Shown: positions 1 through 18,488 of the stretch, one piece after another
How positions within the stretch are numbered: position 1 is the stretch's first letter
Layout: each line of letters begins with the position of its first letter
Source: a virus
Direction: 5' to 3' (one strand)
Length of the DNA: 18,488 nucleotides
UHGV virus genome: UHGV-1333851
Notes under the pieces: model-generated
The model's input: the letters and a program-made list of their open reading frames with translations, nothing else
Told to the model about the DNA's origin: nothing
Databases searched by the model: none
Made by a program: the position numbers and the translations under genes

Positions 1-550
1 AACAACCAGTGCGTGGGTATATGCAAACAGGTTTTCTATTAATAGTGGTTCAACCTCATGGATTGATATGCGAAACCAAAATGTCATTTTTGGTAAAAAC
101 GCGGTATCAACAAGTTCCGCCCAAGCATTATTAAGACAAGACCATGCTGACAGAAAGTTCTTTATTGGTGGTCTTGGTAATAGCCAATTCGGCTTTTACA
201 TGATTAACAACTCAAGAACCGCAAATGGAACAGATGGTCAAGCATTCCTTGATAGCAGTGGTAACTTCCAGTGTGGTGGGCAAATAGTTCCCGCCAATTA
301 CAGTAATTTTGATTCCAGATATGCACTGAGAACATCTTACGTTTCCAGCGTAAGGATGGGGTCCGTTGCCAGTTATAGCCCACCAAACAACGAAACCTCC
401 TGGACTAAGAACCTTGGTAGCGGACTGGTTATGACAGGGATTATTGTTCAGGAAACAGGAAAAGCTTCTGCCGATAACATCGGTGGTATTTATTATCGGC
501 CAGTTCAATATTGTATCAACGGTACCTGGTATACAGCAGCATCAGTATAA
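1..550 (+). CDS. Tail fibre protein, C-terminal receptor-binding part (5' end outside window; fibre module A)
   Basis: Reading frame open from position 2 to TAA at 548-550 with no stop, so the gene continues upstream. The C-terminus (NYSNFDSRYAL...RPVQYCINGTWYTAASV) is paralogous to the C-terminus of the minus-strand fibre gene at 1684-2781. Followed 14 nt later by a tail fibre assembly gene with a strong SD. Confidence 0.8.
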   Translation, partial: TTSAWVYANRFSINSGSTSWIDMRNQNVIFGKNAVSTSSAQALLRQDHADRKFFIGGLGNSQFGFYMINNSRTANGTDGQAFLDSSGNFQCGGQIVPANYSNFDSRYALRTSYVSSVRMGSVASYSPPNNETSWTKNLGSGLVMTGIIVQETGKASADNIGGIYYRPVQYCINGTWYTAASV

Positions 551-564
551 AAAGGAGGCAGTAT

Positions 565-1080
565 ATGAATAATTTTAAAAACTTCACTTCCTACACGCCG
601 GGAGAAGATAAAAAAGAGCTTATTGATGCTGGAGTTTTATTCCTTCAGGATGAAAACGGTAATGACTGGTATGAATGTCAGAAGTTGTTTTCAGAATCTA
701 CAAGAATAGTTGCATATGATAGTAACGATATAGTTGTCAGCATTACTGATGACGTTTCTACCCTTTGGCCTATAGGATTGTCTGTAGCTGAAGTAGGAAG
801 TTTACCTGAAGATGTAGATATCAACGGTAATTGGGTGTTTAGAAACAACTCAGTTGTTAAACGCATATATTCTGATACAGAATTACAACAGCAAGCTGAA
901 TCAAAAAAGGCAGCCTTGCTTTCACACGCCGAATCAGTAATCGCAACTCTTGAGCGGGCAGTTAAATTGAATATGGCAACTGATGAGGAACGAGAAAAAC
1001 TGGAAGCGTGGGAGCGTTATAGCGTGTTGGTTTATCGTGTAGATACAGCTAAACCAGAATGGCCTGAAGAACCGGAGTGA
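565..1080 (+). CDS. Tail fibre assembly protein (Tfa/U-like)
   Basis: ATG at 565 preceded by AAGGAGG; the ORF-track start at 511 lacks an RBS. The N-terminal ~95 aa are highly similar to the convergent ORF at 1120-1665 (MxNFKxFTSYTP.EDK.EL..AGV.FL.DENGNDWYECQK), as expected for phage Tfa/U proteins. Confidence 0.85.
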   Translation: MNNFKNFTSYTPGEDKKELIDAGVLFLQDENGNDWYECQKLFSESTRIVAYDSNDIVVSITDDVSTLWPIGLSVAEVGSLPEDVDINGNWVFRNNSVVKRIYSDTELQQQAESKKAALLSHAESVIATLERAVKLNMATDEEREKLEAWERYSVLVYRVDTAKPEWPEEPE

Positions 1081-1085
1081 AGTAA

Positions 1086-1112
1086 AGGCCCGATTTATCG
1101 GGCCTATTTCAC
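1086..1112. terminator. Hairpin between convergent tfa genes, putative bidirectional terminator
   Basis: GGCCCGA-TTTA-TCGGGCC stem-loop followed by a T-rich tract (TATTTCACTTT), lying between the convergent 3' ends at 1080 and 1120. Confidence 0.5.
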
Positions 1113-1119
1113 TTTCCTT

Positions 1120-1665
1120 TTAAACTGGCTCAGTAGGCCAGGCGATCGCATTGAAAGTGGCTTTATCTGTTATTGTGTTGAAATCTAATGCATTAACAGC
1201 ATCTATATAGTCCAGCCAGGCGTCAAGAGCTGACTGTTCATCTTCAGATAATATTCTGCCGCGTAGTAATTTTGTCTGGCTAATGACGAGCTGTTGACGT
1301 GCGCTGTTAAGTCGCTCAGTGCGTCTTGATTCCGCCATGTTTTTTAACTCATCTGCGGTTCTTACTCTTTCAACCACATTTTCTCCGTCAAATATCCAGT
1401 TCCCATCAATATCTACTCCATCAGGCAGAGTTTCTATTTCTGCTACAGATGCCCCCACAGGCCAGAGTGTTGAAACATCGTTTGAAATACTCACGACGAT
1501 ATTATCGCTGTCATAAACTATCTTTATCGTATTCTCATGAAAAAATTTCTGACATTCATACCAGTCATTACCGTTTTCATCACGTAAAAATACAACTCCA
1601 GCTTCAACAAGCTCTGACTTATCTTCATCTGGGGTGTAGGATGTGAACTTTTTAAAATTAATCAT
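1120..1665 (-). CDS. Tail fibre assembly protein (Tfa-prime/U-prime-like)
   Basis: Paralog of 565-1080. Start placed at the ATG at 1665 (MINFKKF...), which has GGAG 7 nt upstream; the ORF-track start at 1677 has no RBS. The C-terminal half differs from the plus-strand copy. Confidence 0.85.
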   Translation of the reverse strand: MINFKKFTSYTPDEDKSELVEAGVVFLRDENGNDWYECQKFFHENTIKIVYDSDNIVVSISNDVSTLWPVGASVAEIETLPDGVDIDGNWIFDGENVVERVRTADELKNMAESRRTERLNSARQQLVISQTKLLRGRILSEDEQSALDAWLDYIDAVNALDFNTITDKATFNAIAWPTEPV

Positions 1666-1683
1666 TGTTTGCTCCATTAATAA

Positions 1684-2781
1684 TCATGCTGTGGCTGCTG
1701 TATACCAAGTGCCATTAATGCAATACTGTAAAGGCCTCAATCTTGCTGGGTCGTCACCATCAACTTCACCAATAATCCCAAGCCCTGTAATGACATAGCC
1801 AGCAGTTTCAAACATCGTGCCTTTCTGCATGGTATGAGTTTTATATGCCCCAAGTCTGACGCTGGTCACACAAGCCGTCTTTAATGCGTAACGAGAGTCA
1901 AAATTACTATAATTAGAGGGGGACACCTGACCATTTACAGCAAATGTTATGCTGTTATCAGTATTTCTCTGACTATAAAAATGCCATCCTGAATCATCAC
2001 CTAATTCAGCTACAACAGGACGAGTAGAAGCACCCCATAAATTAAATGTTACGTTCTTTGTGGATGTGTTAGAACTTGATAGTGAAAAAGTTTTACTATC
2101 TCCGGCCAGCAATTTTTTTAAAGAAAAAGCCGCATCATTCTGAAAGCGGAATACTCGCTGACCATTAGCGTAAACATCAAGAATGCCATCACCATTCTGT
2201 TTAAAACCAGTATCATTATCGCCAAGGACGATAGAGTTACCACCAAGAGCATTTGCAGTACCCAGACCAACAGAACCATTAACAGTTAAACCATTACCGA
2301 TTGAAACAGCACCATTGGCGTTGTTAATGGTAAGCGGCCTTAAACTATTCCATGTTCCCAGGCTGTCGCCCGAATTGGTCAACATGAAGTATGTGCTTGA
2401 ACCATCGTTTCGGATAAAGAATCCATAGTCACCCTGTACGATGCGGAAGCCATTTCCTGACTTGGAGACAATCTCACCATCAACCGTTAAACCGCCGGTA
2501 AGAGTTCCTCCGGTTATTGGCAATGCATCAATATCTTGAGGCGTGAGGTTAATGTCTTTTGAACCATCAAACGAAACGGAATTAATCTTTCTCGCGGTTT
2601 TCAGCTTTGTAGCCGTTGAGGCATTGCCGGACAGCTCACCAGAAATGCCACCAACAACTGTTAGATCACCAGTTATTGTGCCGCCTGAACTTTCCAGTTT
2701 TTTAGCAACATCACTCTTAATAGAGTCGATTTCTTTTTTCAGATTAGTTATATCTGCTGGTATCGTTGTCACTGTTGCCAT
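1684..2781 (-). CDS. Tail fibre protein, alternative receptor-binding module B, with its own start codon
   Basis: 365 aa. Contains a phage tail fibre repeat-like motif (NASTATKLKTARKINSVSFDGSKDINLT) and Gly-rich fibre sequence; the C-terminal ~80 aa are paralogous to module A (…RPLQYCINGTWYTAATA). ATG at 2781 has AAGGA 9 nt upstream. Confidence 0.8.
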   Translation of the reverse strand: MATVTTIPADITNLKKEIDSIKSDVAKKLESSGGTITGDLTVVGGISGELSGNASTATKLKTARKINSVSFDGSKDINLTPQDIDALPITGGTLTGGLTVDGEIVSKSGNGFRIVQGDYGFFIRNDGSSTYFMLTNSGDSLGTWNSLRPLTINNANGAVSIGNGLTVNGSVGLGTANALGGNSIVLGDNDTGFKQNGDGILDVYANGQRVFRFQNDAAFSLKKLLAGDSKTFSLSSSNTSTKNVTFNLWGASTRPVVAELGDDSGWHFYSQRNTDNSITFAVNGQVSPSNYSNFDSRYALKTACVTSVRLGAYKTHTMQKGTMFETAGYVITGLGIIGEVDGDDPARLRPLQYCINGTWYTAATA

Positions 2782-2790
2782 ATTAATTCC

Positions 2791-3069
2791 TTACGCCCAT
2801 TCCCGCAGCGGTTGTTCTAATTGAACTTCAAAACCATCAAACATTTGTTGTTTCAAACTGTTGTTTAAAATACGAACATTAACGAAGAAGCCATCATTTT
2901 TAATCACTGTTGGTTCTTCGTTCTCGCCGTTTGGTATTTCGGTATATGTAATACCTACAACATCAAGAAGGATGTTGTTTTGCAGTTCTTCATTATCGTG
3001 CCAGGATATACTCTCTAAAAAAGAGTCGTATTCTTCCCTGTCTCTGAATTTCAACGTAATATCTTTCAT
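2791..3069 (-). CDS. Small protein translationally coupled to the upstream fibre gene; putative fibre chaperone/assembly factor
   Basis: 92 aa. Its ATG overlaps the stop of the 3069-4568 fibre gene (TAATG); its stop lies 9 nt before the start of the next fibre gene. The chaperone role is inferred from position only. Confidence 0.4.
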   Translation of the reverse strand: MKDITLKFRDREEYDSFLESISWHDNEELQNNILLDVVGITYTEIPNGENEEPTVIKNDGFFVNVRILNNSLKQQMFDGFEVQLEQPLREWA

Positions 3070-4568
3070 TAAATAACCTCAGCCATTTGTTGGTCTGTTA
3101 ATGCTTTATGCCATATTCTGAAATTCCTGATATGACCAAATAAATGACGTAACCCTGCTGTAGTCTGGCCTCCAATACGGATGGTTGCAGAGTTCTGAAT
3201 ATAGGACCACGTAGTCTTTTTTTCGCTGGATATGCGCCCGTTACTTACTGAGCACGTAGACTGATCTGATTTTACACGCATCCCCATAACCATTTTTTCA
3301 AGCGATGCGTTTTCGTTTACCCGTCTGTTAGCTCCTCCAATATCGCAATAAGGAAATCCGTCTGGCCCATCTGCCGAAGATCCGAACCCAAGAATAATAG
3401 CCGCTCCGGTTTGATGACCGCTGGTATCAAAAACACGTGGCGCTGCATTTGGCGTTTTATACCAGTTCTTATGTACCTCACAAAGAACCGTAAAAGGAAG
3501 ATTATAAAGATTATTATTAATTGGAACTGTAACTATATCGCTTGCGCGGGTAGCCGCCGTCGTTCCTGAGATAATAAAAGATGATGCACAAGAACCATCC
3601 TCAACTTGAGGGGTAGACAGATAAATATAGTCTCCAGATACGGTTGCTCCGCCCTGCTTAGGAGAATACTGTATCTGAGATCCTATTTTTAACTCATCAT
3701 CAATTGCCTGGATTGTTGCCTCTGCAAAAATCCATCCAGTAGCTTCGTCCTTTCTGACTCTCGCTGTAATCCTTGATGCCGCGCCACCTGTCATATTAAT
3801 TTCAAGCGTTTGTGTATCAATATATGCATCACCAAGAAAAGTTGTTGCACTACCGTCATATTTATCAAAGCGGATACGCAACCTTACCTGTCGTTCTGTT
3901 TTAAAACGACATGAGGTTGTCACGTACTTGTTATCGCCTGAAACATCAACTGACTTTGTAGCAGCAATTGATGCCATATTAATGGCTGATGTTTGCCCAA
4001 TCAGAGAATCGTTACAGACAAACTTTCCATAGGTAAAACCAAAACTATCCGTCCCGGTTTCGGGAACATCCATATTTGACGATCGCCCCCAACTGGCAGG
4101 GTTTTCCGAATTGAGCATGTAGTTTGTTCGTTGTCCCTCAATAAGCAGGCCATCACGTTCAAATCGTGGCTCGTCAATGGCAGCCTCTGTCAGCACACCA
4201 GATTTATTTATATAGGTTGCTTTCGATGCGCGTTTAAACTTAACAACCTTGTCGCCAGGCATTGTTATTTCGTCGTCGCCAATAACAATCTTTTTATATG
4301 ATGGAGAAAAGCCCGCAATCATATCCAGTGAATCATTAAACGGTATCCACACATCTGGCAGCGGTTGAATAATCTTCCTGGCATCCTCCAGTGACAATGC
4401 TTCGACATCCGAGGCTGTTAAAGAAATATCTGCCGAACCGTCAAATGAAACGTTGTTAATCTTCCGCGCTGTTTTCAATTTCGTCGCGGTGTCGGCATTC
4501 CCTGTCAGCGCCCCGGTGATCCCGCCGTTGAAAGTCTGGCGTGCACTCCATGTGTTAGCCGTGCTCAA
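3069..4568 (-). CDS. Tail fibre variable segment C with a C-terminal LamG/concanavalin-like domain; probably expressed only as a fusion after inversion
   Basis: 499 aa from a TTG (ORF-track start) that has no SD. The frame stays open upstream through the crossover site to a stop at 4647-4649. Contains a tail fibre repeat (NADTATKLKTARKINNVSFDGSADISLT). The C-terminus (…LFGHIRNFRIWHKALTDQQMAEVI) resembles the terminal strand motif of LamG-like jelly-roll lectin domains. Confidence 0.7.
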   Translation of the reverse strand: MSTANTWSARQTFNGGITGALTGNADTATKLKTARKINNVSFDGSADISLTASDVEALSLEDARKIIQPLPDVWIPFNDSLDMIAGFSPSYKKIVIGDDEITMPGDKVVKFKRASKATYINKSGVLTEAAIDEPRFERDGLLIEGQRTNYMLNSENPASWGRSSNMDVPETGTDSFGFTYGKFVCNDSLIGQTSAINMASIAATKSVDVSGDNKYVTTSCRFKTERQVRLRIRFDKYDGSATTFLGDAYIDTQTLEINMTGGAASRITARVRKDEATGWIFAEATIQAIDDELKIGSQIQYSPKQGGATVSGDYIYLSTPQVEDGSCASSFIISGTTAATRASDIVTVPINNNLYNLPFTVLCEVHKNWYKTPNAAPRVFDTSGHQTGAAIILGFGSSADGPDGFPYCDIGGANRRVNENASLEKMVMGMRVKSDQSTCSVSNGRISSEKKTTWSYIQNSATIRIGGQTTAGLRHLFGHIRNFRIWHKALTDQQMAEVI

Positions 4569-4598
4569 CAGGGGGATCTTTTCACCGCTGGTACCGAG

Positions 4599-4624
4599 TT
4601 CTCTTAAACCAAGGTTTAGGATTG
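4599..4624. other. Site-specific inversion crossover site (hix/gix/cix-like)
   Basis: TTCTCTTAAACC-AA-GGTTTAGGATTG: two 12-bp imperfect inverted half-sites around a 2-bp core, matching the Hin/Gin/Cin family architecture (TTnTCnnAAACC NN GGTTTnnGAnAA). It is the only canonical AAACC-NN-GGTTT found in the window. Confidence 0.75.
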
Positions 4625-5176
4625 AAATGATGACGCCGGAAACTTCTTATAAAGCGTGGAAACAGCCACATCATAGATGATTGCAACCTGCTTACGGGGG
4701 ATACCCTTCTCCAGCAATCGCCGCATTTGCTGCCATGTTTCTTCTTGGTATTTAGGCCGACGCCCACCTATACGACCTTCTGCGCGAGCTGCATCAAGTC
4801 CAGCGCGTGTACGTTCAACGATAAGCTCACGTTCCATTTCTGCCAGCGCACCCATTACGTGAAAGAAAAAGCGCCCCATTGGTGTACTGGTGTCGATGGA
4901 GTCAGTGAGACTCCGGAAGTTAATGCCTCTGTCACGCAGCTCTTCCACCAGCACAACTAAGTGACGCATGCTGCGCCCAAGACGGTCTAACTTCCATACG
5001 ACCAGGGTATCACCTCTGGAAAGCATACGGAGTACCTTTTTTAACCCAGGGCGCTCAGCCTTTTTGCCGCTCGCCTTGTCCTCAAAAATTAGCTCACATC
5101 CTGCGCTTTCAAGAGCGTTTCGTTGTAAAGCAGTGTTTTGTTCATTTGTTGATACACGTACATAGCCTATTAGCAT
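4616..5176 (-). CDS. cin: DNA invertase, small serine recombinase of the Hin/Gin/Cin/Pin family
   Basis: 186 aa. MLIGYVRVSTNEQ…GDTLVVWKLDRLGRS…GRFFFHVMGALAEMERELIVERT…STLYKKFP matches the resolvase/invertase catalytic domain (catalytic Ser in VRVST) and the C-terminal HTH. ATG at 5176. The stop codon lies inside the crossover site. Confidence 0.95.
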   Translation of the reverse strand: MLIGYVRVSTNEQNTALQRNALESAGCELIFEDKASGKKAERPGLKKVLRMLSRGDTLVVWKLDRLGRSMRHLVVLVEELRDRGINFRSLTDSIDTSTPMGRFFFHVMGALAEMERELIVERTRAGLDAARAEGRIGGRRPKYQEETWQQMRRLLEKGIPRKQVAIIYDVAVSTLYKKFPASSFQS

Positions 5177-5302
5177 ATTTTCTGCTCACTATCGTTATTT
5201 ATAGCAAGCTGCGGATTTTAATTAACAAAACCAGTGTGTGTGGAAATCACAAAGTACATACCGTTTCCCAATGATGTTTATTTAACCATTAAGGAAATAG
5301 TT

Positions 5303-5584
5303 ATGTTTGATCTAAAAATCATTTTCATATCCATCTTTGGCGGAGTGCATTCGTTTCTGAATGGGGTTCGTGAAAAACGTTACGAAGCATCATGCAGGCA
5401 ATTGCTGGCCGAGTGTCTTGCTGCCGTACTTGCAGGCTTTATAGGCATGTGTTTCGCGGAATATAAGGGTATGGATGAAAGTCTTCAGAATTGCGTGACT
5501 CTTATTTGCAGCATCAATAACAGGCTCATTCTTGAAAGGTTACAAAGGCTTATCGATTCGTACCTCAATAGAAATGCCTCTTAA
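5303..5584 (+). CDS. Small membrane protein, holin-like (possibly LydC-like)
   Basis: Start placed at the ATG at 5303 (AAGGAAA 7 nt upstream) rather than the ORF-track start at 5234. Two hydrophobic segments (IIFISIFGGVHSFL, LAAVLAGFIGMCFA). First gene downstream of the invertase on the opposite strand. Confidence 0.4.
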   Translation: MFDLKIIFISIFGGVHSFLNGVREKRYEASCRQLLAECLAAVLAGFIGMCFAEYKGMDESLQNCVTLICSINNRLILERLQRLIDSYLNRNAS

Positions 5585-5604
5585 GCAACAAATGACCGGT
5601 TGAG

Positions 5605-5625
5605 AAGTTACTTTGCATACCATTA
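5605..5625 (+). promoter_or_regulatory. Candidate late-type promoter upstream of lydA-like gene
   Basis: GTTACTTTGCATACCAT: a TTTGCAT element abutting a TANNNT hexamer (TACCAT). The same arrangement occurs upstream of lyz. Possibly a late-activator-dependent promoter. Confidence 0.25.
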
Positions 5626-5651
5626 CCTCCTGACAACGTAGGAGGGAACTT

Positions 5652-5981
5652 GTGCTTGACACACAGGAATTAGCTCCAGTTGCTATTGCGCTCCTGCTTT
5701 CAGTAATTGGTGGGATAGGCACGTTCCTGATGGATGTCCGAGATGGTCGCCAGTCTGGCAATTTGTTGGGATTGGTTACGGAGATCTTTGTTGCAGTGAC
5801 AGCTGGCGCGGTGGCGTACCTATTGGGGCAACACGAAGGCTGGGAGTTATCAATTACGTACTTAATGGTAACGATAGCCAGCAATAACGGTCATGAGGTG
5901 ATTTCAGGGATGAAACGAGTGAATATCGATAGCATTCTGAATGTTCTTACAAGTTTGGTGAAAAAGGGAGGTGGGAAATGA
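5652..5981 (+). CDS. lydA: Holin-like membrane protein (LydA-like)
   Basis: 109 aa. GTG start at 5652 with GGAGGG just upstream. Two or three predicted TM segments (VAIALLLSVIGGIGTFL, IFVAVTAGAVAYLL). Lies immediately upstream of the Hdf/DarA-like genes, as lydA does in P1 by my recollection. Confidence 0.55.
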   Translation: MLDTQELAPVAIALLLSVIGGIGTFLMDVRDGRQSGNLLGLVTEIFVAVTAGAVAYLLGQHEGWELSITYLMVTIASNNGHEVISGMKRVNIDSILNVLTSLVKKGGGK

Positions 5982-6421
5982 TTGGCTGGGGTGTATGCGT
6001 TCTTGCGTTAGCCTTAGCCGATCGCTATTTGCTAAAACGCAAGGACATCACGCATTTAGAACTTGGTGATGTGGAAATTAAACAGGGCTTCATCCGGGTG
6101 CCGTTCAAATACCGGTCTAAATTCCCGTTTTTGCGCGGCGCAACGGTCAGATATTGGATCCGCGATGTTCAGAAGCCAACGACAGTGATTGAAGGCGAAC
6201 AACGTTGTCTGACGTCGGCTGAACAGGGCGAAAACAGTGAATGGTTGTACATACCCACTGAATATATGGGTAAAGGAGAGCGACTGTGGCATTTCAACGT
6301 CATGGTTACGCATGGCGACTCGTTCATTAACCCGTTGTATCGGATTTTCCCTGTTACTCAGAAAATCCGCAGAAGTTACGTAATAAATCTCGCACAGGAT
6401 GTGTCAGATGACGAAAAATAA
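5978..6421 (+). CDS. lydB: LydB-like protein (putative holin antagonist/lysis regulator)
   Basis: 147 aa. ATGA start/stop overlap with the preceding gene and a strong SD (GGGAGGTG). N-terminal hydrophobic segment. Assignment rests on position and size only. Confidence 0.45.
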   Translation: MIGWGVCVLALALADRYLLKRKDITHLELGDVEIKQGFIRVPFKYRSKFPFLRGATVRYWIRDVQKPTTVIEGEQRCLTSAEQGENSEWLYIPTEYMGKGERLWHFNVMVTHGDSFINPLYRIFPVTQKIRRSYVINLAQDVSDDEK

Positions 6422-7010
6422 GTATGCAACGGTCGATTTTGACCAGGTTAATGAAAAGGGGCTGAAATCCCTTATCGCGGCGATCAATAAAACCGGTGTT
6501 ACGGTAATTGAGGTTGACTCCAGCAACCGCGCAACAACGAAAGATGGCGTTAAAGTTAAAACCGCAAAGCTGGTTCTTAACGACGGACAAATTCTTGCCA
6601 TACAGGTAAACGATACTGGCGATATATCGTCTGTGAAACTGAATGGAAAAGCTATTCCTAACGCTCAGTCGCCGGATATCAAGACGCTTGGTACCGTCAT
6701 GGGACAGGCGGCCCGCAAAAACTCCGCAAAATTCCAGAAATCACTGATCGCCAAAGCGAAGCGTGTTGCCAATCCGGTAGACAAGAAACCGGCAGTTAAA
6801 TCCAACTTTCAGCGCCTGCAAGAAGCAAAACAGCGGAATGCTCAGGTGGTTGCCGCTTATAAGTCCGCGCAGAATTCGGTGTCTTTCAATCAACAGCAGA
6901 TCACTGATTTGCGGGCGAAGCTGGATAAGGAGACGGGCCGACTCAATAACGAAAAGGCACGGAATGGCGAACTTAAACGTCGTCTTAAGCAACTGAAAGC
7001 AGGAAATTAA
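6408..7010 (+). CDS. hdf: Hdf-like protein (paralog of a DarA fragment)
   Basis: Start at the ATG at 6408 (AGGA 9 nt upstream). Shares a region with the next, larger gene (L.DGQ…NSAKFQ.…K). C-terminal coiled-coil-like K/R/E-rich tail. Confidence 0.55.
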   Translation: MTKNKYATVDFDQVNEKGLKSLIAAINKTGVTVIEVDSSNRATTKDGVKVKTAKLVLNDGQILAIQVNDTGDISSVKLNGKAIPNAQSPDIKTLGTVMGQAARKNSAKFQKSLIAKAKRVANPVDKKPAVKSNFQRLQEAKQRNAQVVAAYKSAQNSVSFNQQQITDLRAKLDKETGRLNNEKARNGELKRRLKQLKAGN

Positions 7011-7011
7011 C

Positions 7012-8931
7012 ATGGAACAGTTCAATATCAATAAAGGGGTGACGATCAAGCCTGGGCTTGACGTGCTTCCCCCGCCAGTGACTGATGATGAATATCGCGC
7101 ATTAATGGCCGGTGAGGACCGCTATCTGATGACGGAATCCAACACCCTGGAGGAAATCGAGGCTACGTTCTTCTATGACACGCCGATCCACTGGTGTGCT
7201 ACGGATTTACTGGAGGCGATTAGTTCTACTCGTTTGCAGTTACACCGGACCATGCAGGCATTTGTCCGGGCATTGAACCAGAAGCTGAATGGTACCGGAA
7301 TCTCTGCGGGGAGTGATAAAACGGGGGATGTGGCCCAGAGCGGCGCGCGCGCGATCGGCGGCGCTGAAATTGGTCGGGCACGTAACGTTAACGGGCTGCC
7401 GGTCCTGCCAGCCATTATTCCGCTCAGTGATGGTCAGACTATCAGCATTTTGTTTCATAGCCCGACAGCGGAAAACCGGATCACCAATAGCGATACGCTG
7501 GTTGCTTTCCAGTTCTTACTGAATAAAAAAGACGTTACTCACACCGTTGCTCCGATGAGTGGACGTGATATGACGCTGGCGCAGGTCACCATGAAACTTG
7601 CCAACCTTGCAGAGAAAAACTCGGCAAAATTCCAGCGTGCGCAGAAGAAGAAAAAAGCCCTGGTTGATGAAATAACCCAACTACAGGCTGACAGTGACCA
7701 GAAAGAGGATGCCATGAGCGACCTCGCGGATCAGGTGGCAGCGGTAGAAGGCCAGAAGGCAGATCTGGAGCAGAAAATTAACGCGGTTGCTTCGGAAGCG
7801 GATTCTCTTTATCAAGAAAATGAGCGTTTGCAGGCGGAGATTGATCAGCTCAATCGCACTGGTGGGCGCGATACCATTGCTCCAGCGGGGATGACTGGTG
7901 GGCACTCTCGCGCGCTGACGGATCGCCTTGCCAGTATCAAAAATCGTATGCATATGGACGGGGAAGCGACGCTCAGTAATGGTGCATCAATGAAGCAATT
8001 CATTGGGGATGGCGAAGGGTATATCCAGTTAACCGATCCGGATGGCAGCGTATACATGATCAAGGCTAAATCCATACAGGGTGTGGACATGGCAGAAGCG
8101 ATCGGCAAGCTGTTTAAAGCCTATAAAGCGGGTAATGTATCGGAATATCTGGTCCAACCAGAAGAACATAAACCGGAAAACGTCGAACCTGAACCAGCGG
8201 AGGATACCGGTAGCTCTTCGCCTGAACCAGAAGTCTCTGTAGGTGCATATCGATATGCCCTGCAAATGCGTCCGGCGGCCCCTGGCGCAATACCTGAAGG
8301 TAACAAAGCGATTCTGCCGCGCCCTGATGAAGGTGACCCGTATTATGAATATGCACGCTACGGCATTGCTACTTACGATACCCCGCTTTCTGATCAGCAA
8401 ATGAGTGAGTACGACCTGAAGTTATTGCCTCGCGAGGATTCTTTCGACTTCCTGGCGAAGACACTTACTAATGGTCCGTTTGGCAAATATGCACAAAAAG
8501 CTCTGGAGCTGGCCACCAGCTCACCAGACGAGTTCCGCGTAATGCTGAAAACTCAGTTTCAAAAAACTTTCCCCAATATTGCGTTTCCTGGGGGCACTGG
8601 CACCGAGAAAATGGTGCAGAGCATGATCAATGCATTGCAGGCCGAAGTCGGTGAGATTACTCAGCCAGAACCGGCCCCGGCACAGCCTGATGAAACGGTT
8701 AGCGAAGCAGATGCAGAGGCTAATAAAGCCATTGAATATCTCAATAACGTGATGGATATGCAAAGCACTGACATGGCGGAGATCCGTAACGCCCGGGGTA
8801 ATGTCCGGGAAGCTATTGCAGCCCTTCAGGCTGCCGGGCGTTTTGAGGAAAACGAAGAGCTGGTTAATGGCGCAGCTCGCCACCTGGCTGATCTGCTGGT
8901 AGCAATCCAGAAAGCGGGGGTAGCGGCATGA
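7012..8931 (+). CDS. darA: DarA-like head-internal antirestriction / head morphogenesis protein
   Basis: 639 aa with an internal coiled-coil segment (QLQADSDQKEDAMSDLADQVAAVEGQKADLEQKINAV…). Paralogous to the preceding Hdf-like gene. Size and operon position match P1 DarA by recollection; not verified. Confidence 0.55.
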   Translation: MEQFNINKGVTIKPGLDVLPPPVTDDEYRALMAGEDRYLMTESNTLEEIEATFFYDTPIHWCATDLLEAISSTRLQLHRTMQAFVRALNQKLNGTGISAGSDKTGDVAQSGARAIGGAEIGRARNVNGLPVLPAIIPLSDGQTISILFHSPTAENRITNSDTLVAFQFLLNKKDVTHTVAPMSGRDMTLAQVTMKLANLAEKNSAKFQRAQKKKKALVDEITQLQADSDQKEDAMSDLADQVAAVEGQKADLEQKINAVASEADSLYQENERLQAEIDQLNRTGGRDTIAPAGMTGGHSRALTDRLASIKNRMHMDGEATLSNGASMKQFIGDGEGYIQLTDPDGSVYMIKAKSIQGVDMAEAIGKLFKAYKAGNVSEYLVQPEEHKPENVEPEPAEDTGSSSPEPEVSVGAYRYALQMRPAAPGAIPEGNKAILPRPDEGDPYYEYARYGIATYDTPLSDQQMSEYDLKLLPREDSFDFLAKTLTNGPFGKYAQKALELATSSPDEFRVMLKTQFQKTFPNIAFPGGTGTEKMVQSMINALQAEVGEITQPEPAPAQPDETVSEADAEANKAIEYLNNVMDMQSTDMAEIRNARGNVREAIAALQAAGRFEENEELVNGAARHLADLLVAIQKAGVAA

Positions 8932-9293
8932 CACTATCAGCTATTGAGTTAATGGACCTCAGCGATAAGTTGGATGCTCTGATGTCCAAAGCGGCTACCG
9001 CGAGTGGCATGGAGTTGCTGGATATCAGCGATGAAATTGACCAGATCATGCAACAGATGGGGTACGGCGCGTCTGGCGGCGGTAGTGGCGAGGAGAAACA
9101 ACCTTCGGAACATGATGGTGTGCCAAAACTGGTTGCTGATTTCCTGGCTGATAAATTCGTCGATCAGAGCACTGATGCATTTATCGGTACGTTACAGGAC
9201 TTGAGTCAATATGTTGGCACATACATCGACCTGGACCAGGTTAAACAGCACACGGCGGCATGGATAGCCGCCAACATTAAAGAGGCAGCATAA
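8928..9293 (+). CDS. ddrA: DdrA-like small acidic protein
   Basis: 121 aa. ATGA overlap with the darA-like stop. Positional analog of P1 ddrA. Confidence 0.4.
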   Translation: MTLSAIELMDLSDKLDALMSKAATASGMELLDISDEIDQIMQQMGYGASGGGSGEEKQPSEHDGVPKLVADFLADKFVDQSTDAFIGTLQDLSQYVGTYIDLDQVKQHTAAWIAANIKEAA

Positions 9294-9305
9294 GGCGTAA
9301 CAGGG

Positions 9306-12293
9306 ATGAGCTTAAGCGATCAGGTGGTAATGGCCACCAGCATAGAAACGCTGATCGAGCTGCTAAAGAACCTGCCCGATTATGGGCGGGTTTCGTATGT
9401 GGTGACAGCGAAGGGAGACGAGGTAAAAACAGCGTTTGATATCGTCGATGCCTCAGCTCTTTTGGTATCCAATACTCTGGATGGGAAAATTAATCCTGAC
9501 TATCCCCAGGAACTTCAACCGCGCGACCGGACCCGCGCATCCAGCCTTCTTCAGGTTAACCAGATATCCAAAGATTTGCGGCCTGCTCAGCTTACCGACT
9601 CCGGTTTATCCAGCCATGGCGCGCCGATAATTGGTGAGGACAATGCCGTTGAGTCAGGTAATGGGCGGACCATGGGGATCATTAAAGCCTATCAGGACGG
9701 TAATGCGGATCGGTATCGGGAGTACCTGATTGAACATGCGACCGAATTCGGCATACGGCCTGAAAAGGTTGAATCAATGACGGCTCCGGTACTGGTGCGC
9801 CGCCGGTTAACGAAGGTTGACCGTGTTCAGTTTGCCAAGGACTCAAATATTTCTGATCTCCAGGAAATGGCAGCCAGTGAAAAGGCTTTTGTTGATGCCG
9901 ACAGCATAACTCCGGCGATGATGGCGCTTTTTAACCCGTCAGAAAGCGGAGATCTGCTTAGCCGCAGTAATGACGCGTTTATTCGCGGATTTATGACGCA
10001 AGTTGGTGCCACACAGGCGGCTGGCCTTGTAACTGAAGATGGGCGACCAACACGGCAACTTGTAGACCGTATACAAAACGCGATCTTTGCCAAGGCATAT
10101 AAGGATGCGCGCCTGGTAAGGATGGTTGCAGAAGAACCTGATCCGGATATGCGTAATGTTCTGACGGCGCTTAATGCGGCAGCCAATGATTTTGTCCAGA
10201 TGCAGGCTTTATCAGGAGAAGCGCACAAGCAGGCTGTGACAACTATTGTTGATGGCATTGAGACAGCGGATAGCCTCGATAAAAAGGCGCTGGCAGCATT
10301 GAAAGATGCGGTAGACCTGGTAAGGCAATCGAAGGAGTCAGGCCAGCATATTACCGATGTTATTGCTCAGGGGGATATGTTCAGCGAAACGGCCCCGGAA
10401 GTGAAAGCACTCGCGTTGTTCATCGTCGCGAATAACCGTAGCGCGAAGCGTATGGCCACCGCCTTTAAGTTGATGGCTCAACGTATCAATGATGAGTTAC
10501 AGCACCAGGGCCAGGCGCTGGGGGATATGTTTGGCGGCGGCGATGTGTCGTTACAGGATATCCTTCGCCAGGTGTCTCAGGAACTGGAAAACGAAGGCAT
10601 GCAAGGGATATCCGGCGGTCTTTTCGAGTCCGTTTCCGGCGGTAGTTACAACGGTGTTGCTCCGTATACCAGTTTGCTATTACATCGGGCATCCGGCATC
10701 AAAGACATTATTCATCTGATCAGGCTGCTTTCCCGCACAGATCCCCAGGATGAACAGCTTGTACAAGTGCTTGCGCATTTTGTTCGAATGCCTGTTGCCG
10801 ACGTGAAAAAATGGTGCCGATTATTCGGTATCAGCAATTCGTTACTTCGCGGCTTGTTAAATCACGCATCCTCCCTTGGGCGCGATGGCTTTGACGAGAT
10901 AGCGCAGGCGATAAAAAACGGAGATATGCCACCAGCTATTGACTGGTTTTCCATTCGCCCAACCAGGGTGAAAGCATTCCTTAGCGCGGCGCATTCGGCA
11001 TCACCATTGGCAGAAATGGTTCAGAGGTTGTCGCTCATATTCACAGACCATAGCGCGTTGGGTGATCTGACTCTGGACGAGATGAAAGAAGCCTCCATTC
11101 AGTGGGCCGATCAACAAAATGAGGTTAACTCAGACTTCTTGCCAGCATTCAGGAAGGCCGTTAGTAAAGTGGATGATGCCCGTGGAATTCTGAAGGCATT
11201 TAAGGCATTGCAAAGTCGGGTTAATAAACATGTCGGTGATATCGATGGGGTAACGGCGGAAGGCAGGGATATCCTTAAAGAGCACGGCATAACGCCAGAG
11301 TTTATTGATGAGATCAGGACGGATATGCAGCGTGAGGTCGTATCGTCCCTGCAAATCGTAGCCAGAGCGTTGGCGGATGCTAATCCGAAGAGTGCGGCCA
11401 TTGTTAACCGGGTTATTGGTGATATTGAAGCATCGGAGGGCATGGGGGCGCTGAAACTCTTCCTTTCGCGAGCGTTTAATCCTAACGGCAATATTCTCCC
11501 CAGCATTATTGGTGAGGCTAAAAAGCATGTCAGTGAAGAAGAACTTGAGCAGCTTAACCAGCTACTCAATCGATTTTCATATATCCCGCAGAAACGCTGG
11601 CAAATGAATCAGCGTAGTATGGATTCGGTCTACGAGAAAGTGTTATCTGCCATGAACAGTGCGATCGCCAACTCATCCGTATCAGAAGAAAAAGCTCTTG
11701 AGTGGGCCGACTCTTTTATCACGGAAGAAGTGGAAGAAGCCCGCGCTGGACAGAATGGTGGAATAGACCTGCGCAAGGAACTTGCTGATATTTATCGCCT
11801 GACCGGCGGGAAAATATCAACCTTATCAAGGGTAATTCACCACAAGGGTAGGGCGTATGCAAATCTTAATGGTGTTGTTGCTGTCGATTTGCACGATGAA
11901 AATGCAAATGCACTGTGGCACGAGCTGGGTCATCATCTTGAGTACAGTAACCCGGGTTTGTTAGAGAAAGCCAGGTCATTCCTGAAGGCCAATGTTGAAG
12001 GGGATAAGCCATCTTTCGTTAATATTGGTGGGCGTGGCAAGCCTGAATGGTGCTTCAGATCTCGATTGAGTGATATTTATATGGCGAAGGTATACCCGCC
12101 TGTCTCAGTGAGTAATTCTGGTAAATTTCGACACAAATCTCCGACAATTTCCAAAACGTCAGCAACGGAAGTATTCTCTATGGCTCTTCAGTTGTATCAT
12201 GACAAAGAGGCCGCTGCCGCATCACTGATGAATGGTGACGGATTGCTGGAACTGTTATTAGGTGTGGCAAAGGAGCTAAATAATGCAGATTAA
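9306..12293 (+). CDS. ddrB: DdrB-like large virion-associated multidomain protein with a zincin HExxH motif
   Basis: 995 aa. HExxH motif near the C-terminus (ALWHELGHHLEYSNPG). N-terminal region has a possible ParB/Srx-like signature (ESGNGRTMG), unverified. Last large gene of the Dar-like operon. Confidence 0.5.
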   Translation: MSLSDQVVMATSIETLIELLKNLPDYGRVSYVVTAKGDEVKTAFDIVDASALLVSNTLDGKINPDYPQELQPRDRTRASSLLQVNQISKDLRPAQLTDSGLSSHGAPIIGEDNAVESGNGRTMGIIKAYQDGNADRYREYLIEHATEFGIRPEKVESMTAPVLVRRRLTKVDRVQFAKDSNISDLQEMAASEKAFVDADSITPAMMALFNPSESGDLLSRSNDAFIRGFMTQVGATQAAGLVTEDGRPTRQLVDRIQNAIFAKAYKDARLVRMVAEEPDPDMRNVLTALNAAANDFVQMQALSGEAHKQAVTTIVDGIETADSLDKKALAALKDAVDLVRQSKESGQHITDVIAQGDMFSETAPEVKALALFIVANNRSAKRMATAFKLMAQRINDELQHQGQALGDMFGGGDVSLQDILRQVSQELENEGMQGISGGLFESVSGGSYNGVAPYTSLLLHRASGIKDIIHLIRLLSRTDPQDEQLVQVLAHFVRMPVADVKKWCRLFGISNSLLRGLLNHASSLGRDGFDEIAQAIKNGDMPPAIDWFSIRPTRVKAFLSAAHSASPLAEMVQRLSLIFTDHSALGDLTLDEMKEASIQWADQQNEVNSDFLPAFRKAVSKVDDARGILKAFKALQSRVNKHVGDIDGVTAEGRDILKEHGITPEFIDEIRTDMQREVVSSLQIVARALADANPKSAAIVNRVIGDIEASEGMGALKLFLSRAFNPNGNILPSIIGEAKKHVSEEELEQLNQLLNRFSYIPQKRWQMNQRSMDSVYEKVLSAMNSAIANSSVSEEKALEWADSFITEEVEEARAGQNGGIDLRKELADIYRLTGGKISTLSRVIHHKGRAYANLNGVVAVDLHDENANALWHELGHHLEYSNPGLLEKARSFLKANVEGDKPSFVNIGGRGKPEWCFRSRLSDIYMAKVYPPVSVSNSGKFRHKSPTISKTSATEVFSMALQLYHDKEAAAASLMNGDGLLELLLGVAKELNNAD

Positions 12294-12594
12294 AATCGCA
12301 GCGCCATTAGGCGGAGATGCCATTATCGAATTTGATGATAATGAAGAAGTTTCCGGGCGTTTAAGCATTATCTCCGGTGACATTACCGAGGACATGATCG
12401 CTGAAGCCATAGCTGGGGCAAATCCCAATAGCTATATGGGATTCGTTAACACCCTTGATGCTCCCGCAAGTGATGTTCTCCGAACGCTGCATCTTTACGC
12501 TGGCTGGTTTGTTGATTGGCCAGTAGTAGATGGTGGCGATGAGGACGACGACGACGATGATTTTGGTGATCATGTAGACCAGATCGTATATTGA
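12283..12594 (+). CDS. Small highly acidic protein with a poly-Asp tract
   Basis: 103 aa. Start overlaps the ddrB-like stop (ATGCAGATTAA). C-terminal DGGDEDDDDDDFGDHVDQIVY. Followed directly by a strong terminator. Confidence 0.5.
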   Translation: MQIKIAAPLGGDAIIEFDDNEEVSGRLSIISGDITEDMIAEAIAGANPNSYMGFVNTLDAPASDVLRTLHLYAGWFVDWPVVDGGDEDDDDDDFGDHVDQIVY

Positions 12595-12596
12595 AG

Positions 12597-12628
12597 AAAT
12601 CCCGCCAATCGGCGGGATTTTTTTTAAT
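12597..12628. terminator. Rho-independent terminator, bidirectional between convergent operons
   Basis: AAATCCCGCC-AATC-GGCGGGATTT, a perfect 10-bp stem, followed by a T run. Sits between the plus-strand stop at 12594 and the minus-strand stop at 12624. Confidence 0.75.
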
Positions 12629-13412
12629 CGCTTTCCACTTCTTCCGTGGTGTTTTCTTGCAGTTCTGTTAATGCAGCACGACATAGGTTCCGGGCATTGG
12701 CTATAGCCACACTTTTGACTTCATCCGTCATCGTGCAGGTAATGTACTGATCGAGTTCTTCAGCGCGGATGATGCTTTTGCCAATCAGAAACTGTATTTG
12801 CCAGAGCAGATCGGCATCCATAATCAGAATTTCTGCCGGGCCTTCAGGGCCAGCCGGGAAGGAAACATAAGACTGTTTGCCCAGGCCGATAACTCGACAA
12901 CTTGCTTCAAGAATTGCGCGCTTGAGGTCTGACTTTGTAACGGAAACAGGTTGGTTTTCACCAGTGATTATGCCGTTGACATGGAAGTGGAAGGGCATGT
13001 AGCTTGAAATACGCTCTACTTTCCACACGCCAGCAAGCGATCCTTCATGCAGCACAATGGGGGTAACCGCGAGTTTCATCTCACCATATAACTGCTGGCA
13101 GATAGCTGGATTGCTGAATACATCCAAAGGTTCACACTCAAACAGCGGCGCAATCTGCATGAGGTCCATCATGGTCATACCAGGGGTACGAGCAGTAATG
13201 AATCTGCGCATGCCAGTATCCATTGTGCGCCAGATAGCTACACCATGCTTTTTGCTCACTTCTTCAGTAAAGCCAAGGTGGCACATGATGGTTTTTTCGA
13301 TAGCCAGATCAGAGATCGAAACCTTTTCGCCAGGCACACCATCATTATTGATGGTCACTTCGACACTCTGACCATTACGCAGGCGGTATTGAATTGCTTT
13401 AGTATTTTCCAC
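12624..13412 (-). CDS. Hypothetical protein, function unknown
   Basis: 262 aa. GTG start at 13412 with GGAGTG 8 nt upstream; start lies 7 nt after the stop of the preceding gene. No motif I can assign. Confidence 0.55.
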   Translation of the reverse strand: MENTKAIQYRLRNGQSVEVTINNDGVPGEKVSISDLAIEKTIMCHLGFTEEVSKKHGVAIWRTMDTGMRRFITARTPGMTMMDLMQIAPLFECEPLDVFSNPAICQQLYGEMKLAVTPIVLHEGSLAGVWKVERISSYMPFHFHVNGIITGENQPVSVTKSDLKRAILEASCRVIGLGKQSYVSFPAGPEGPAEILIMDADLLWQIQFLIGKSIIRAEELDQYITCTMTDEVKSVAIANARNLCRAALTELQENTTEEVESD

Positions 13413-13418
13413 GTTAAA

Positions 13419-14096
13419 TCACTCCACTACAAACCAGTCACATGCCAGTAAGTCGCCTACAGAAGGAACCCACGGAACAACTACACCTTGTGCATTTTTT
13501 AAGGCGAAATAAGCACCATACGGAACGAGGTCGCCGGGGAAATATCCCTTAATGGCTTCCATTCGTGCCGGGTACTGTCCTTCAGGAACCAGCCAGCAGA
13601 ATTGGTTTTCGCCGTTCCACCCGCGTCGAGCAACTTTCTTGCCATCCTTCAGCCACATCAGCGCGTCAGAAAAGTCGGCTGCTTCAAGGTCGATTTCTTC
13701 TTGTAGAGTAGCGATACCGCCAGCAGAAATAGTTACGTCCCTGGCTGTAATGAATGTCACCCCATTGTGACCTTCAATGCTGAGCAATGCCCCATTTTCG
13801 AAGAAGTCGTTAGTCCGACTAAAGCCTTCTTCAAATGTTTTTTCTGGTGAATAGGACAGAGATCCGTCCTCATAAGCGACCAGATATCCGCCAATTTCTG
13901 GTCGGTGTTTTTGCAAAAACATTTTATCAACATGGACTTTTACCCCTTCTGGCTCAACGACTTCGATGTTGCAAAGAAGGACCACATCCATTAGGGCGAT
14001 AATTTCGATATCTTTGATTTTTGAGGCACGAACTGTTTTATGGCTTTTGTATTTTGGAAGTGCCGTCAAAAGCTCTTTCGTTGTCATGTTATTCAT
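13419..14096 (-). CDS. Two-domain protein with a C-terminal DUF2829 (Tad2-like) domain
   Basis: Start placed at the ATG at 14096 (AGAGGAAA 5 nt upstream), not the ORF-track GTG at 14264, whose extension is R/K-rich and lacks an RBS. The C-terminal ~85 aa (FSDALMWLKDGKKVARRGWNGENQFCWLVP…PWVPSVGDLLACDWFVVE) match the DUF2829 signature as I remember it. Confidence 0.6.
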   Translation of the reverse strand: MNNMTTKELLTALPKYKSHKTVRASKIKDIEIIALMDVVLLCNIEVVEPEGVKVHVDKMFLQKHRPEIGGYLVAYEDGSLSYSPEKTFEEGFSRTNDFFENGALLSIEGHNGVTFITARDVTISAGGIATLQEEIDLEAADFSDALMWLKDGKKVARRGWNGENQFCWLVPEGQYPARMEAIKGYFPGDLVPYGAYFALKNAQGVVVPWVPSVGDLLACDWFVVE

Positions 14097-14293
14097 AGTC
14101 TTTCCTCTGCTTAAAACCTGATGTATTGCGCCTTCAGGTGGGGCAGGATTGTTTTCCCACCAGCGAAAGCAATATCTCGGGGTGTTCTTTTCGTGAAAAG
14201 CGCGTGCCATTGCCAACTTTGGCGTTTGTTTGCGAGTTCGTGCTTTTGTCGGCGTCTGGACCACCGCTTTTCTTTCAGTCGTTTTTTACACAT

Positions 14294-14782
14294 TCAAAAC
14301 GGAATATCGTCGTCAAAGTCCATTGGAGGCTCGTTATTGGCGTTGCTCTGAGGTTTACCGCCACCACTGTATTGCTGGTGGTTTTGAGGTTGGTTTGATT
14401 GCCCCCAGCCATTTGAGGACTGTGAATCGTCACGGCGAGCGCCGATCATTTGCATGGTGCCGCCCTGGCTGACGATAATTTCCGTCGTGTAACGTTCTAC
14501 ACCGGCGTCATCTGTCCACTTACGGGTTTTAAGTTTCCCTTCGATGTATACCTGAGAACCTTTTCGTAAATACTCACTCGCAATTTCAGCAAGTTTTCCG
14601 AACAAAACGACTTTATGCCATTCTGTTTGCTCTTTCTGTTGGCCCGTTTGCTTGTCGCGCCATGATTCATTCGTTGCGATGCTGAGTCTTCCGACCGCGC
14701 CGCCATTTGGTATATACCTGATCTCCGGGTCTTGCCCCAAGGTACCAATCAGTATGACTTTGTTTACACCGCGTTGTGCCAC
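14294..14782 (-). CDS. ssb: Single-stranded DNA-binding protein
   Basis: 162 aa. Near-identical in organisation to E. coli SSB: OB-fold ([23 protein letters not shown]…[29 protein letters not shown]), Gly/Gln-rich linker and acidic tip [14 protein letters not shown] start with AGGTAAG upstream. Confidence 0.97.
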
Positions 14783-14844
14783 TTATCTTACCTAATAAAA
14801 TAAATTAATTAGAGCAATAATGTATATCTTTGAAACGTAGCTAA

Positions 14845-14866
14845 CAAGTGATTTGCATTATCCTGT
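14845..14866 (+). promoter_or_regulatory. Candidate late-type promoter upstream of lyz
   Basis: AGTGATTTGCATTATCCT: a TTTGCAT element abutting TATCCT (TANNNT), about 85 nt upstream of the lyz ATG. Confidence 0.25.
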
Positions 14867-14951
14867 GCCTTCTAAAGGGATCGAGTCAGTCGGTATTGGC
14901 TGTGAATGGGTGTTTGTCCTGGAGCGTAAAAAATTCGCTTATGAGGTCTTT

Positions 14952-15509
14952 ATGAAGGGAAAAACAGCCGCAGGAGGCGGTGCAATTTGCGCTATCGCGG
15001 TGATGATTACCATCGTGATGGGTAATGGCAATGTGCGAACCAACCAGGCGGGGCTTGAGCTTATCGGAAACGCTGAAGGTTGCCGACGTGATCCATACAA
15101 GTGCCCGGCGGGTGTATGGACTGACGGGATTGGTAATACACACGGGGTAACGCCTGGCGTGCGAAAAACCGACCAGCAAATCGCCGCTGATTGGGAAAAG
15201 AATATCCTGATCGCTGAACGCTGTATTAACCAGCACTTCCGGGGCAAAGACATGCCCGATAATGCCTTCAGCGCAATGACAAGCGCGGCATTCAATATGG
15301 GATGCAATAGTTTACGGACCTACTACAGCAAAGCGCGAGGCATGCGAGTCGAAACGTCCATCCATAAGTGGGCGCAGAAAGGGGAATGGGTGAATATGTG
15401 TAACCATCTCCCTGATTTTGTGAACAGTAACGGCGTCCCCCTGCCCGGGTTAAAGATTCGCCGTGAAGAAGAACGCCAGCTTTGCCTGACGGGGCTTGTC
15501 AATGAATAA
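14952..15509 (+). CDS. lyz: SAR-type endolysin (T4-lysozyme family, P1 Lyz / P21 R-like)
   Basis: Start at the ATG at 14952 (GAGG upstream). N-terminal signal-anchor-release-like segment (AAGGGAICAIAVMITIVMG) followed by the lysozyme catalytic region (GLELIGNAEGCRRDPYKCPAGVWTDGIGNTHG). Confidence 0.9.
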   Translation: MKGKTAAGGGAICAIAVMITIVMGNGNVRTNQAGLELIGNAEGCRRDPYKCPAGVWTDGIGNTHGVTPGVRKTDQQIAADWEKNILIAERCINQHFRGKDMPDNAFSAMTSAAFNMGCNSLRTYYSKARGMRVETSIHKWAQKGEWVNMCNHLPDFVNSNGVPLPGLKIRREEERQLCLTGLVNE

Positions 15510-15756
15510 ACTCCGGCAGCTCCGCCGACTTTCGACAATGAAGTTATCGCTGGCGGCGATAGTTTTTGACTCGATTTTCATGGCGGTATATGTGCTCAAT
15601 GAGACGTGGCCACTGGAACCGCTATTATATGCCGGGCTTCGGCTGTGCCTGACATTTTTGAGCATGGCTGCAAGATTGATGCAGCAGAAAGAAACCGCTT
15701 CAGATTGCCCACGTCGCGCGGTGCGCAAATATATGGCACGCAGACGAAGGCGATAA
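15502..15756 (+). CDS. Small membrane protein overlapping the endolysin 3' end (lysis accessory, holin/antiholin-like)
   Basis: ATG at 15502 overlaps the lyz stop (ATGAATAA). Two hydrophobic segments (LSLAAIVFDSIFMAVYVL, LLYAGLRLCLTFLSMAARL) and a basic C-terminus (RRRRR). Confidence 0.4.
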   Translation: MNKLRQLRRLSTMKLSLAAIVFDSIFMAVYVLNETWPLEPLLYAGLRLCLTFLSMAARLMQQKETASDCPRRAVRKYMARRRRR

Positions 15757-15767
15757 TAGTTAACGAT

Positions 15768-15797
15768 AACCCCGGCAGCCGCCGGGGTTATTTTTGG
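15768..15797. terminator. Rho-independent terminator
   Basis: AACCCCGGC-AGCC-GCCGGGGTT stem-loop followed by ATTTTTGG; lies between the convergent gene ends at 15756 and 15801. Confidence 0.65.
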
Positions 15798-15800
15798 TGG

Positions 15801-18488
<2,688 letters not shown>

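Follow-up and report, generated by a model that had tools for sequence, protein, structure and literature searches.

The window analysed here, the whole 18,488-nucleotide stretch of virus genome UHGV-1333851, opens with tail fibre and fibre assembly chaperone genes, continues with a serine DNA invertase gene whose 3′ end overlaps a 26-bp recombination site, and closes with a long backbone related to that of phage P1 (Table 1). Positions 4456–12000 hold cin, lydC, lydA, lydB, hdf, darA, ddrA and ddrB and are 97.9% identical to phage P1, and the P1 backbone continues through positions 12000–18488 with isaA, ssb, lyz, pro and prt. By its sequence, the window belongs to a P1-like phage-plasmid (Punavirus). 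Region 12000–18488 aligns to Salmonella phage SJ46 as one colinear piece with 100% coverage and 97.8% identity and to P1 as three pieces with 89% coverage, a pattern consistent with the absence of the IS1 that P1 carries beside isaA.

Table 1. Features of the fibre and invertase region, by position in the window.
Feature	Position	Strand	Basis and remarks
3′ end of the currently expressed S fibre gene	2–550	+	phrog_22609 and phrog_454 tail fibre; runs off the left window edge
Tail fibre assembly chaperone of the currently expressed set (U-type)	511–1080	+	Pfam Caudo_TAP, E 2.3e-29; converges with the 1120–1677 gene
Tail fibre assembly chaperone of the silent set (U′-type)	1120–1677	-	Pfam Caudo_TAP, E 5.4e-21; phrog_136
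Second fibre gene, 365 aa	1684–2781	-	Own SD AAGGAattaatATG; Pfam Gp34_trimer, E 5.7e-31; phrog_454, E 1.3e-92
92-aa ORF	2791–3069	-	ATG overlaps the fibre stop (TAATG); phrog_1361, unknown function, E 1.8e-35
Predicted silent variable fibre cassette (fibre C, Sv′-type)	3069–4613	-	514 codons, junction codon CTT to stop; frame and SD scan
cin-proximal arm of the inverted repeat flanking the segment, about 145 bp	4468–4612		Match to the cixR side of NZ_AP029607
cixL-type 26-bp recombination site	4599–4624		Inner half 4599–4610, core AA 4611–4612, outer half 4613–4624
cin, serine DNA invertase, 186 aa	4616–5176	-	Stop TAA 4618–4616; Pfam Resolvase, E 4.6e-51, and HTH_7, E 1.9e-18
Putative recombinational enhancer (sis), within the 5′ part of cin	5087–5158		Identity to P1 feature
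Counterpart of the predicted P1 promoter P1cin	5215–5247	-	Position equivalent to annotated P1cin, with an indel

The recombination site is an imperfect palindrome, TTCTCTTAAACC AA GGTTTAGGATTG, that occurs once in the window, where no chance match is expected at up to three mismatches, and it is identical to cixL of phage P1 at 26 of 26 bases. GenBank record AF234172 annotates the homologous 26 bp as the recombination site cixL with its crossover between nucleotides 32224 and 32225, the position that the 2-bp core at 4611–4612 occupies here, and the 31-bp Cin protein_bind feature of the same record matches window 4595–4625 without a difference (31/31). These matches establish the identity of the site as a 26-bp imperfectly palindromic crossover site with a 2-bp core. 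The neighbouring gene encodes a small serine recombinase, with the resolvase catalytic domain at its N-terminus and an HTH domain at its C-terminus, that is identical to P1 Cin over all 186 amino acids. Within the 5′ part of this gene, 71 of 72 bases agree with the AF234172 feature described as 'enhancer of Cin-mediated C-segment inversion', and by this likeness the element would act in cis as a recombinational enhancer. Upstream of cin, a consensus scan returned a minus-strand promoter-like site at 5244–5215, identified as a consensus match only.

An earlier note on this DNA had placed the invertase stop codon within one half of the crossover site, and the ORF coordinates confirm that the TAA lies within the outer, cin-side half-site. 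The heading of that note, which put the crossover site inside the stop codon, was right about the overlap but reversed its direction, as the stop lies inside the site and the core lies outside the stop. Three bases (4613–4615) separate the strand-exchange core from the TAA, so inversion would never alter cin. AF234172 likewise shows the cin coding sequence ending four bases from the crossover, with the adjoining sequence annotated as Sv′, an alternative C-terminal moiety of tail fibre S. Because cixL, the Cin-binding region, the enhancer and Cin all match P1, the stop-codon overlap and the open fibre frame that runs from the site are the known anatomy of P1 cixL. The earlier note did not identify the arrangement as the textbook P1 Cin/cixL/Sv′ system. 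A text search of the literature for the overlap of stop codon and site gave only irrelevant papers, and the comparison is based on the GenBank annotation of AF234172.

Position 1 of the window already falls within the invertible segment, which leaves the partner site and the constant fibre part (Sc) beyond the window; both were taken from sibling plasmids. One sibling, NZ_AP029607 (L003), has the orientation of the window and is colinear with window 4–12200 at 97.5% identity over 12.2 kb. Its cixR, TTATCCAATACC TT GGTTTAAGAGAA, lies at L003 5482–5507 inside a 1137-aa S gene with whose end window 2–550 is colinear, and this sibling accordingly has an inverted second site in the constant fibre part. 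In S, codon CTT (Leu454) is made up of the last base of the outer half-site and the core TT, and the cassette of the window is in phase with it, reading CTT GGT TTA AGA GAA. Inversion had been proposed to fuse an external constant fibre part to fibre C in frame at the 2-bp core, a proposal that an out-of-frame junction would have contradicted. We rebuilt the inverted junction in silico by joining the window cassette at the core to Sc of L003, a 97%-identical sibling and not the window's own genome, and obtained an in-frame, uninterrupted ORF of 967 amino acids. This fused ORF is identical at 963 of 967 positions to the annotated fibre WP_419867207 of plasmid NZ_CP123334 (L004), and the junction peptide ...VIQY/LGLRELGTSGEK... 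(slash, junction) is the same in the window fusion, L003 and L004. Exchange at the core thus preserves the reading frame for either variable part.

Both orientations of the segment exist in nature. In a survey drawn from complete E. coli genomes, the cassette adjoins cin in three plasmids (NZ_AP045735, NZ_AP029607 and NZ_CP195366), and four P1-sized plasmids (NZ_CP123334, NZ_CP098912, NZ_CP124376 and NZ_AP027414) and one chromosome, NZ_CP007392, lose homology to the cassette at window 4622, where the site has its outer edge. Of the four plasmids, NZ_CP123334 has an annotated Sc fusion, and we read its reciprocal half-site junctions: this plasmid is in the opposite orientation, matches the window only to 4622 and then continues into Sc, with CAATCCTAAACC TT GGTTTAAGAGAA at the junction beside cin and TTCTCTTAAACC AA GGTATTGGATAA at the junction in S. 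The L002 and L004 junctions are the exact reciprocal half-site combinations predicted by exchange at the core. The L003 and L004 plasmids, which differ in orientation, share many identical annotated proteins: the invertase, the 92-aa and 365-aa products, the two chaperones and proteins of the backbone.

The inverted repeat around the site is visible in these comparisons as well as in public contigs. Window 4468–4622 matches the cixR side of L003 at 96% in inverse orientation; reading inward from the core, the arms of L003 agree perfectly over 125 bp, and those of P1 show no mismatch for 557 bp. With a repeat of only about 145 bp, the two variable fibre ends have a short N-terminal part in common, about 48 codons. 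Contig JAKXJR020000119.1 (L007, 5889 bp) is 99.98% identical to window 1–4467, extends a further 1.4 kb leftward, and stops on both sides at the inner edge of the repeat, so that it comprises the unique interior of the invertible segment and its ends at both repeat edges imply the second, inverted site. Such ends are an assembly signature of the repeat or of inversion heterogeneity, as expected when assemblers meet a unique stretch between inverted repeats, and assemblies that break at the 145-bp repeats are to be expected. Another contig, ENA ERZ807525 NODE_35 (L006), is 99.99% identical to window 312–12781 and ends inside the segment. Both contigs came from an exact-protein look-up aimed at the window's own left flank, and neither reaches Sc.

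These data bear on the possibility that the switch is a fossil, a set of P1-like sequences that no longer inverts and has left the cassette as a permanently silent remnant. P1-like plasmids with damaged cin or C segments have been documented (PMC6906374), the inverted repeat is shorter here than in P1, and the partner site is not visible in the window. Yet Cin, cixL and the enhancer are essentially identical to the functional elements of P1, the cassette and all genes downstream of it have intact reading frames, near-identical plasmids occur in either orientation with the site as the breakpoint, and in a 99.98%-identical element the assembly ended precisely at the two inverted repeats. We consider a fossil very unlikely and infer that the window's own copy of the switch is active.

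We then examined how the cassette could be translated in the present orientation. As the earlier note described, the minus-strand fibre frame follows a TAA at 4649–4647 and is open through the site from 4646 to 3069. Its use of this openness held for one part of the frame and failed for the other: from 4613 downward the frame matters as the coding sequence joined by the fusion, but the 11 codons at 4646–4614 overlap the cin 3′ end in another frame and carry no weight, since the estimated chance that 11 codons are free of stops, (61/64)^11, is about 0.6. The nominal start, TTG 4568, is merely the first start-type codon that an ORF finder meets in the fibre frame. The absence of an SD at fibre C was borne out by the scan, as no AGGA, GGAG, GAGG or AAGG occurs 3–16 nt upstream of the six in-frame ATG, GTG or TTG codons from 4568 to 4262, across the first ~390 nt of the fibre frame. 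PGAP annotates the cassette in NZ_AP029607 as a pseudogene 'missing N-terminus'. The lack of initiation signals supports the proposal that the cassette is silent in the present orientation, and its silence at the protein level is likely on this evidence.

Transcription is a separate matter. The invertase gene and the cassette run in the same direction and a search of the minus strand at 4400–4620 found no terminator-like site, so low-level transcription of the cassette from the cin promoter is probable, and downstream genes with their own SD might not be wholly silent in the present orientation. Such read-through would lend plausibility to the idea that the cassette is an independent gene translated from TTG 4568 whatever the orientation, for which a 499-aa ORF exists mechanically and was reported by the gene caller on the ENA contig L006. 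However, neither TTG 4568 nor any of the next five in-frame starts has an SD, this TTG lies in the inverted repeat, where the identical sequence forms an internal Leu codon of the expressed S gene, and the 499-aa product would be without the Sc part. PGAP flags the cassette as N-terminally incomplete and siblings carry the Sc-fused form, and an independent gene is in our judgement highly improbable.

A second crossover site was sought in the window with the 26-mer at up to three mismatches, the central 14-mer at up to two and the 12-mer at up to one, and none was found in the segment part. The sole other 12-mer match, AGTACAGTAACCCGGGTTTGTTAGAG at 11941–11966 inside ddrB, has one mismatch to the central AAACCNNGGTTT of the cix site and a near-identical copy at the same place in P1, and is probably a chance resemblance. 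P1 is known to have quasi-cix sites. A search for internal secondary sites of the Min type gave no convincing candidate, the internal matches requiring at least three mismatches in the 12 specified bases, and the window has a single good site and complete sibling segments have two, where a Min-type system has more than two. Multi-site shuffling like that of Min of plasmid p15B, which would yield many fibre permutations in place of a two-site flip, is suggested by the label 'fibre C' of the earlier note, with its hint of three modules, and by the presence of more fibre-type genes in the segment than in P1, two of them on the silent side, but it is exceedingly improbable, as TAAACCNNGGTTTA occurs only once in the window at up to two mismatches, only weak chance-level matches appear inside the segment at up to three (window, L003, L004 and L007), and the 365-aa gene is preceded by its own ATG and SD and not by a crossover site. 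A plasmid shufflon, in which the tyrosine recombinase Rci works on numerous short sfx repeats, was rejected as a candidate; the recombinase here is a serine resolvase/invertase, and no sfx-like repeat family was found in the window.

Together, the data lead us to conclude with high confidence that the site at 4599–4624 is cixL bounding the invertible C segment of a P1-like phage-plasmid, and that the adjoining cassette is probably silent until inversion fuses it to Sc. By analogy with the identical P1 elements, Cin would pair cixL with an inverted cixR in the constant part of S, predicted about 1.5 kb to the left of the window, and with the enhancer inside cin would exchange strands at the 2-bp core, flipping about 6.2 kb. 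As the segment now lies, the late S transcript would leave Sc for the other variable module, of which 2–550 is the 3′ end, and pass on to the chaperone gene at 511–1080, while the cassette at 4613–3069 would remain untranslated behind the cin 3′ end, where it has no initiation signals. After inversion the late S promoter and Sc (453 codons) would be read into the cassette to produce the 967-aa fibre, and the genes for the 92-aa protein, the 365-aa protein and the chaperone (1677–1120) would be co-expressed. Junction-spanning peptides containing ...VIQYLGLRELGTSGEK... followed by cassette-specific sequence are predicted in the inverted state only. Inversion would presumably shift host range, the change described for P1 S and S′ (bioRxiv 10.1101/2022.07.24.501295).

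The cargo of the segment is where this locus departs from P1. The silent side is a four-gene cassette (window 1684–4613, minus strand) made up of a Stf-type fibre end, the 92-aa phrog_1361 ORF, the 365-aa Gp34_trimer gene and a chaperone gene. The fibre end matches phrog_1419 tail protein (E 5.7e-236) and the NCBIfam GTA_spike_fiber domain, and its distal part, 3100–4367, shares about 93% identity with the Stf-like side tail fibres that lambdoid phages carry. The 92-aa gene follows a Stf homologue in phage Tritos and in 48-kb plasmids as well, the order of fibre, small ORF and second fibre recurs at L005 4938–8338 and L008 2639–6342, and the silent-side cassette looks as if it was imported as a unit.

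Several internal homologies link the fibre genes of the segment to one another. Both fibre genes of the silent side contain a common 61-aa linker, at 2515–2697 (residues 29–89 of the 365-aa ORF) and 4389–4571 (cassette residues 15–75), with 61% identity and the shared motif GNA.TATKLKTARKIN.VSFDGS.DI.LT. In MH422554, the DNA equivalent to window 1684–2526 is the 3′ end of S, fused to Sc without a separate gene start. This fusion and the shared linker suggest that the 365-aa gene may be a displaced former Sv′ that gained its own start. Inverted homology also connects window 2275–2526, in the 365-aa gene, with the other variable module at L003 6741–6992 (about 250 bp, 87%), and an inverted repeat, I1, lies between the chaperone genes (565–840 versus 1390–1665, 74%). 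Such internal inverted homologies could in principle allow Cin-independent homologous inversion of sub-segments.

The composition of the silent side raises a further reading, which we advance only tentatively and regard as unlikely, in which the switch would toggle between two fibre architectures and low-level expression of the 365-aa fibre while the cassette is off would give mixed virions. One state would build a single-chain S fibre of Mu/P2 type; the other would build a chimera of P1 Sc and the lambdoid Stf-type end with its GTA head-spike-fibre domain, which would recruit the separately encoded 365-aa Gp34_trimer fibre through the 92-aa protein. No terminator could be detected where cin reads into the cassette, and the 365-aa gene is equipped with an SD of its own, so this fibre could be made at a low level when the cassette is off.

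For annotation, the preferred conclusion of a cixL-bounded C segment means that the cassette beside cin is best labelled as an alternative 3′ part of S, in place of the labels pseudogene and 499-aa gene. The imported lambdoid cassette is an example of the way in which receptor-binding modules are swapped behind a conserved cix/linker junction in P1-like phage-plasmids, and such module swapping is useful for host-range prediction and for the engineering of P1-based delivery vectors. The mechanistic significance is small, as the switch is the classic P1 host-range switch.

The closest known system is the C segment of P1 and P7 (Cin, cixL/cixR, Sc-Sv/Sv′ and U/U′), which has the same Cin, cixL, enhancer and surrounding backbone, with the cin stop within the outer half-site and Sv′ abutting the cin 3′ end as in the window. 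The junction motif ...IQY/LGLRE..., common to the window, L003 and L004, belongs to this likeness, and the P1 C segment and its cix sites are described alike in the literature (bioRxiv 10.1101/2022.07.24.501295; PMC6906374). The site and its invertase follow the P1 descriptions of the 1980s, as does the in-frame fusion, and what we report is a rediscovery of the known P1 C-segment switch, whose mechanism is not new and of which only the cargo differs; the fibre cassette found here has been sequenced before and is unstudied. P1 carries a Mu-like Sv′-U′, whereas the segment here carries a lambdoid Stf-type end, the 92-aa ORF, a separate 365-aa fibre gene and a chaperone gene, and it is longer (about 6.2 kb versus an annotated 4.26 kb) with shorter inverted repeats (about 145 bp versus about 0.6 kb). 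The G segment of Mu is inverted by Gin, a member of the same serine invertase family, and its gix sites, Sc-Sv/Sv′ and U/U′ likewise link one constant N-terminus, through a 26-bp site, with alternative C-termini, each paired with a chaperone. In Mu, gin is located outside the G segment with transcription directed away from the segment, so its stop codon and gix do not overlap. The fibre modules found here differ from those of Mu. The annotation of P1 (AF234172) notes extensive Mu homology, and the inversion logic of the Mu type is comparable (bioRxiv 10.1101/2022.07.24.501295). Min of p15B shares with this locus a P1-related replicon, a Cin-like invertase and fibre gene variation, but the segment here has two sites where Min has multiple crossover sites. 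Six crossover sites are used by Min of p15B. The 48-kb RepA plasmids carry the same fibre genes followed by a fibre assembly gene, with no annotated invertase in the region examined. Phage Tritos, a lambdoid phage with a Pin-type system, matches the cassette in content and order (phrog_1419 fibre end, 92/93-aa ORF and 346–365-aa fibre) at about 93% identity over 1.27 kb, and its PinR invertase gene lies about 0.56 kb beyond the fibre cluster. The Tritos fibre is a complete Stf gene, carried by a siphovirus, whereas here the C-terminal part alone is grafted behind the P1 cix site and a conserved linker.
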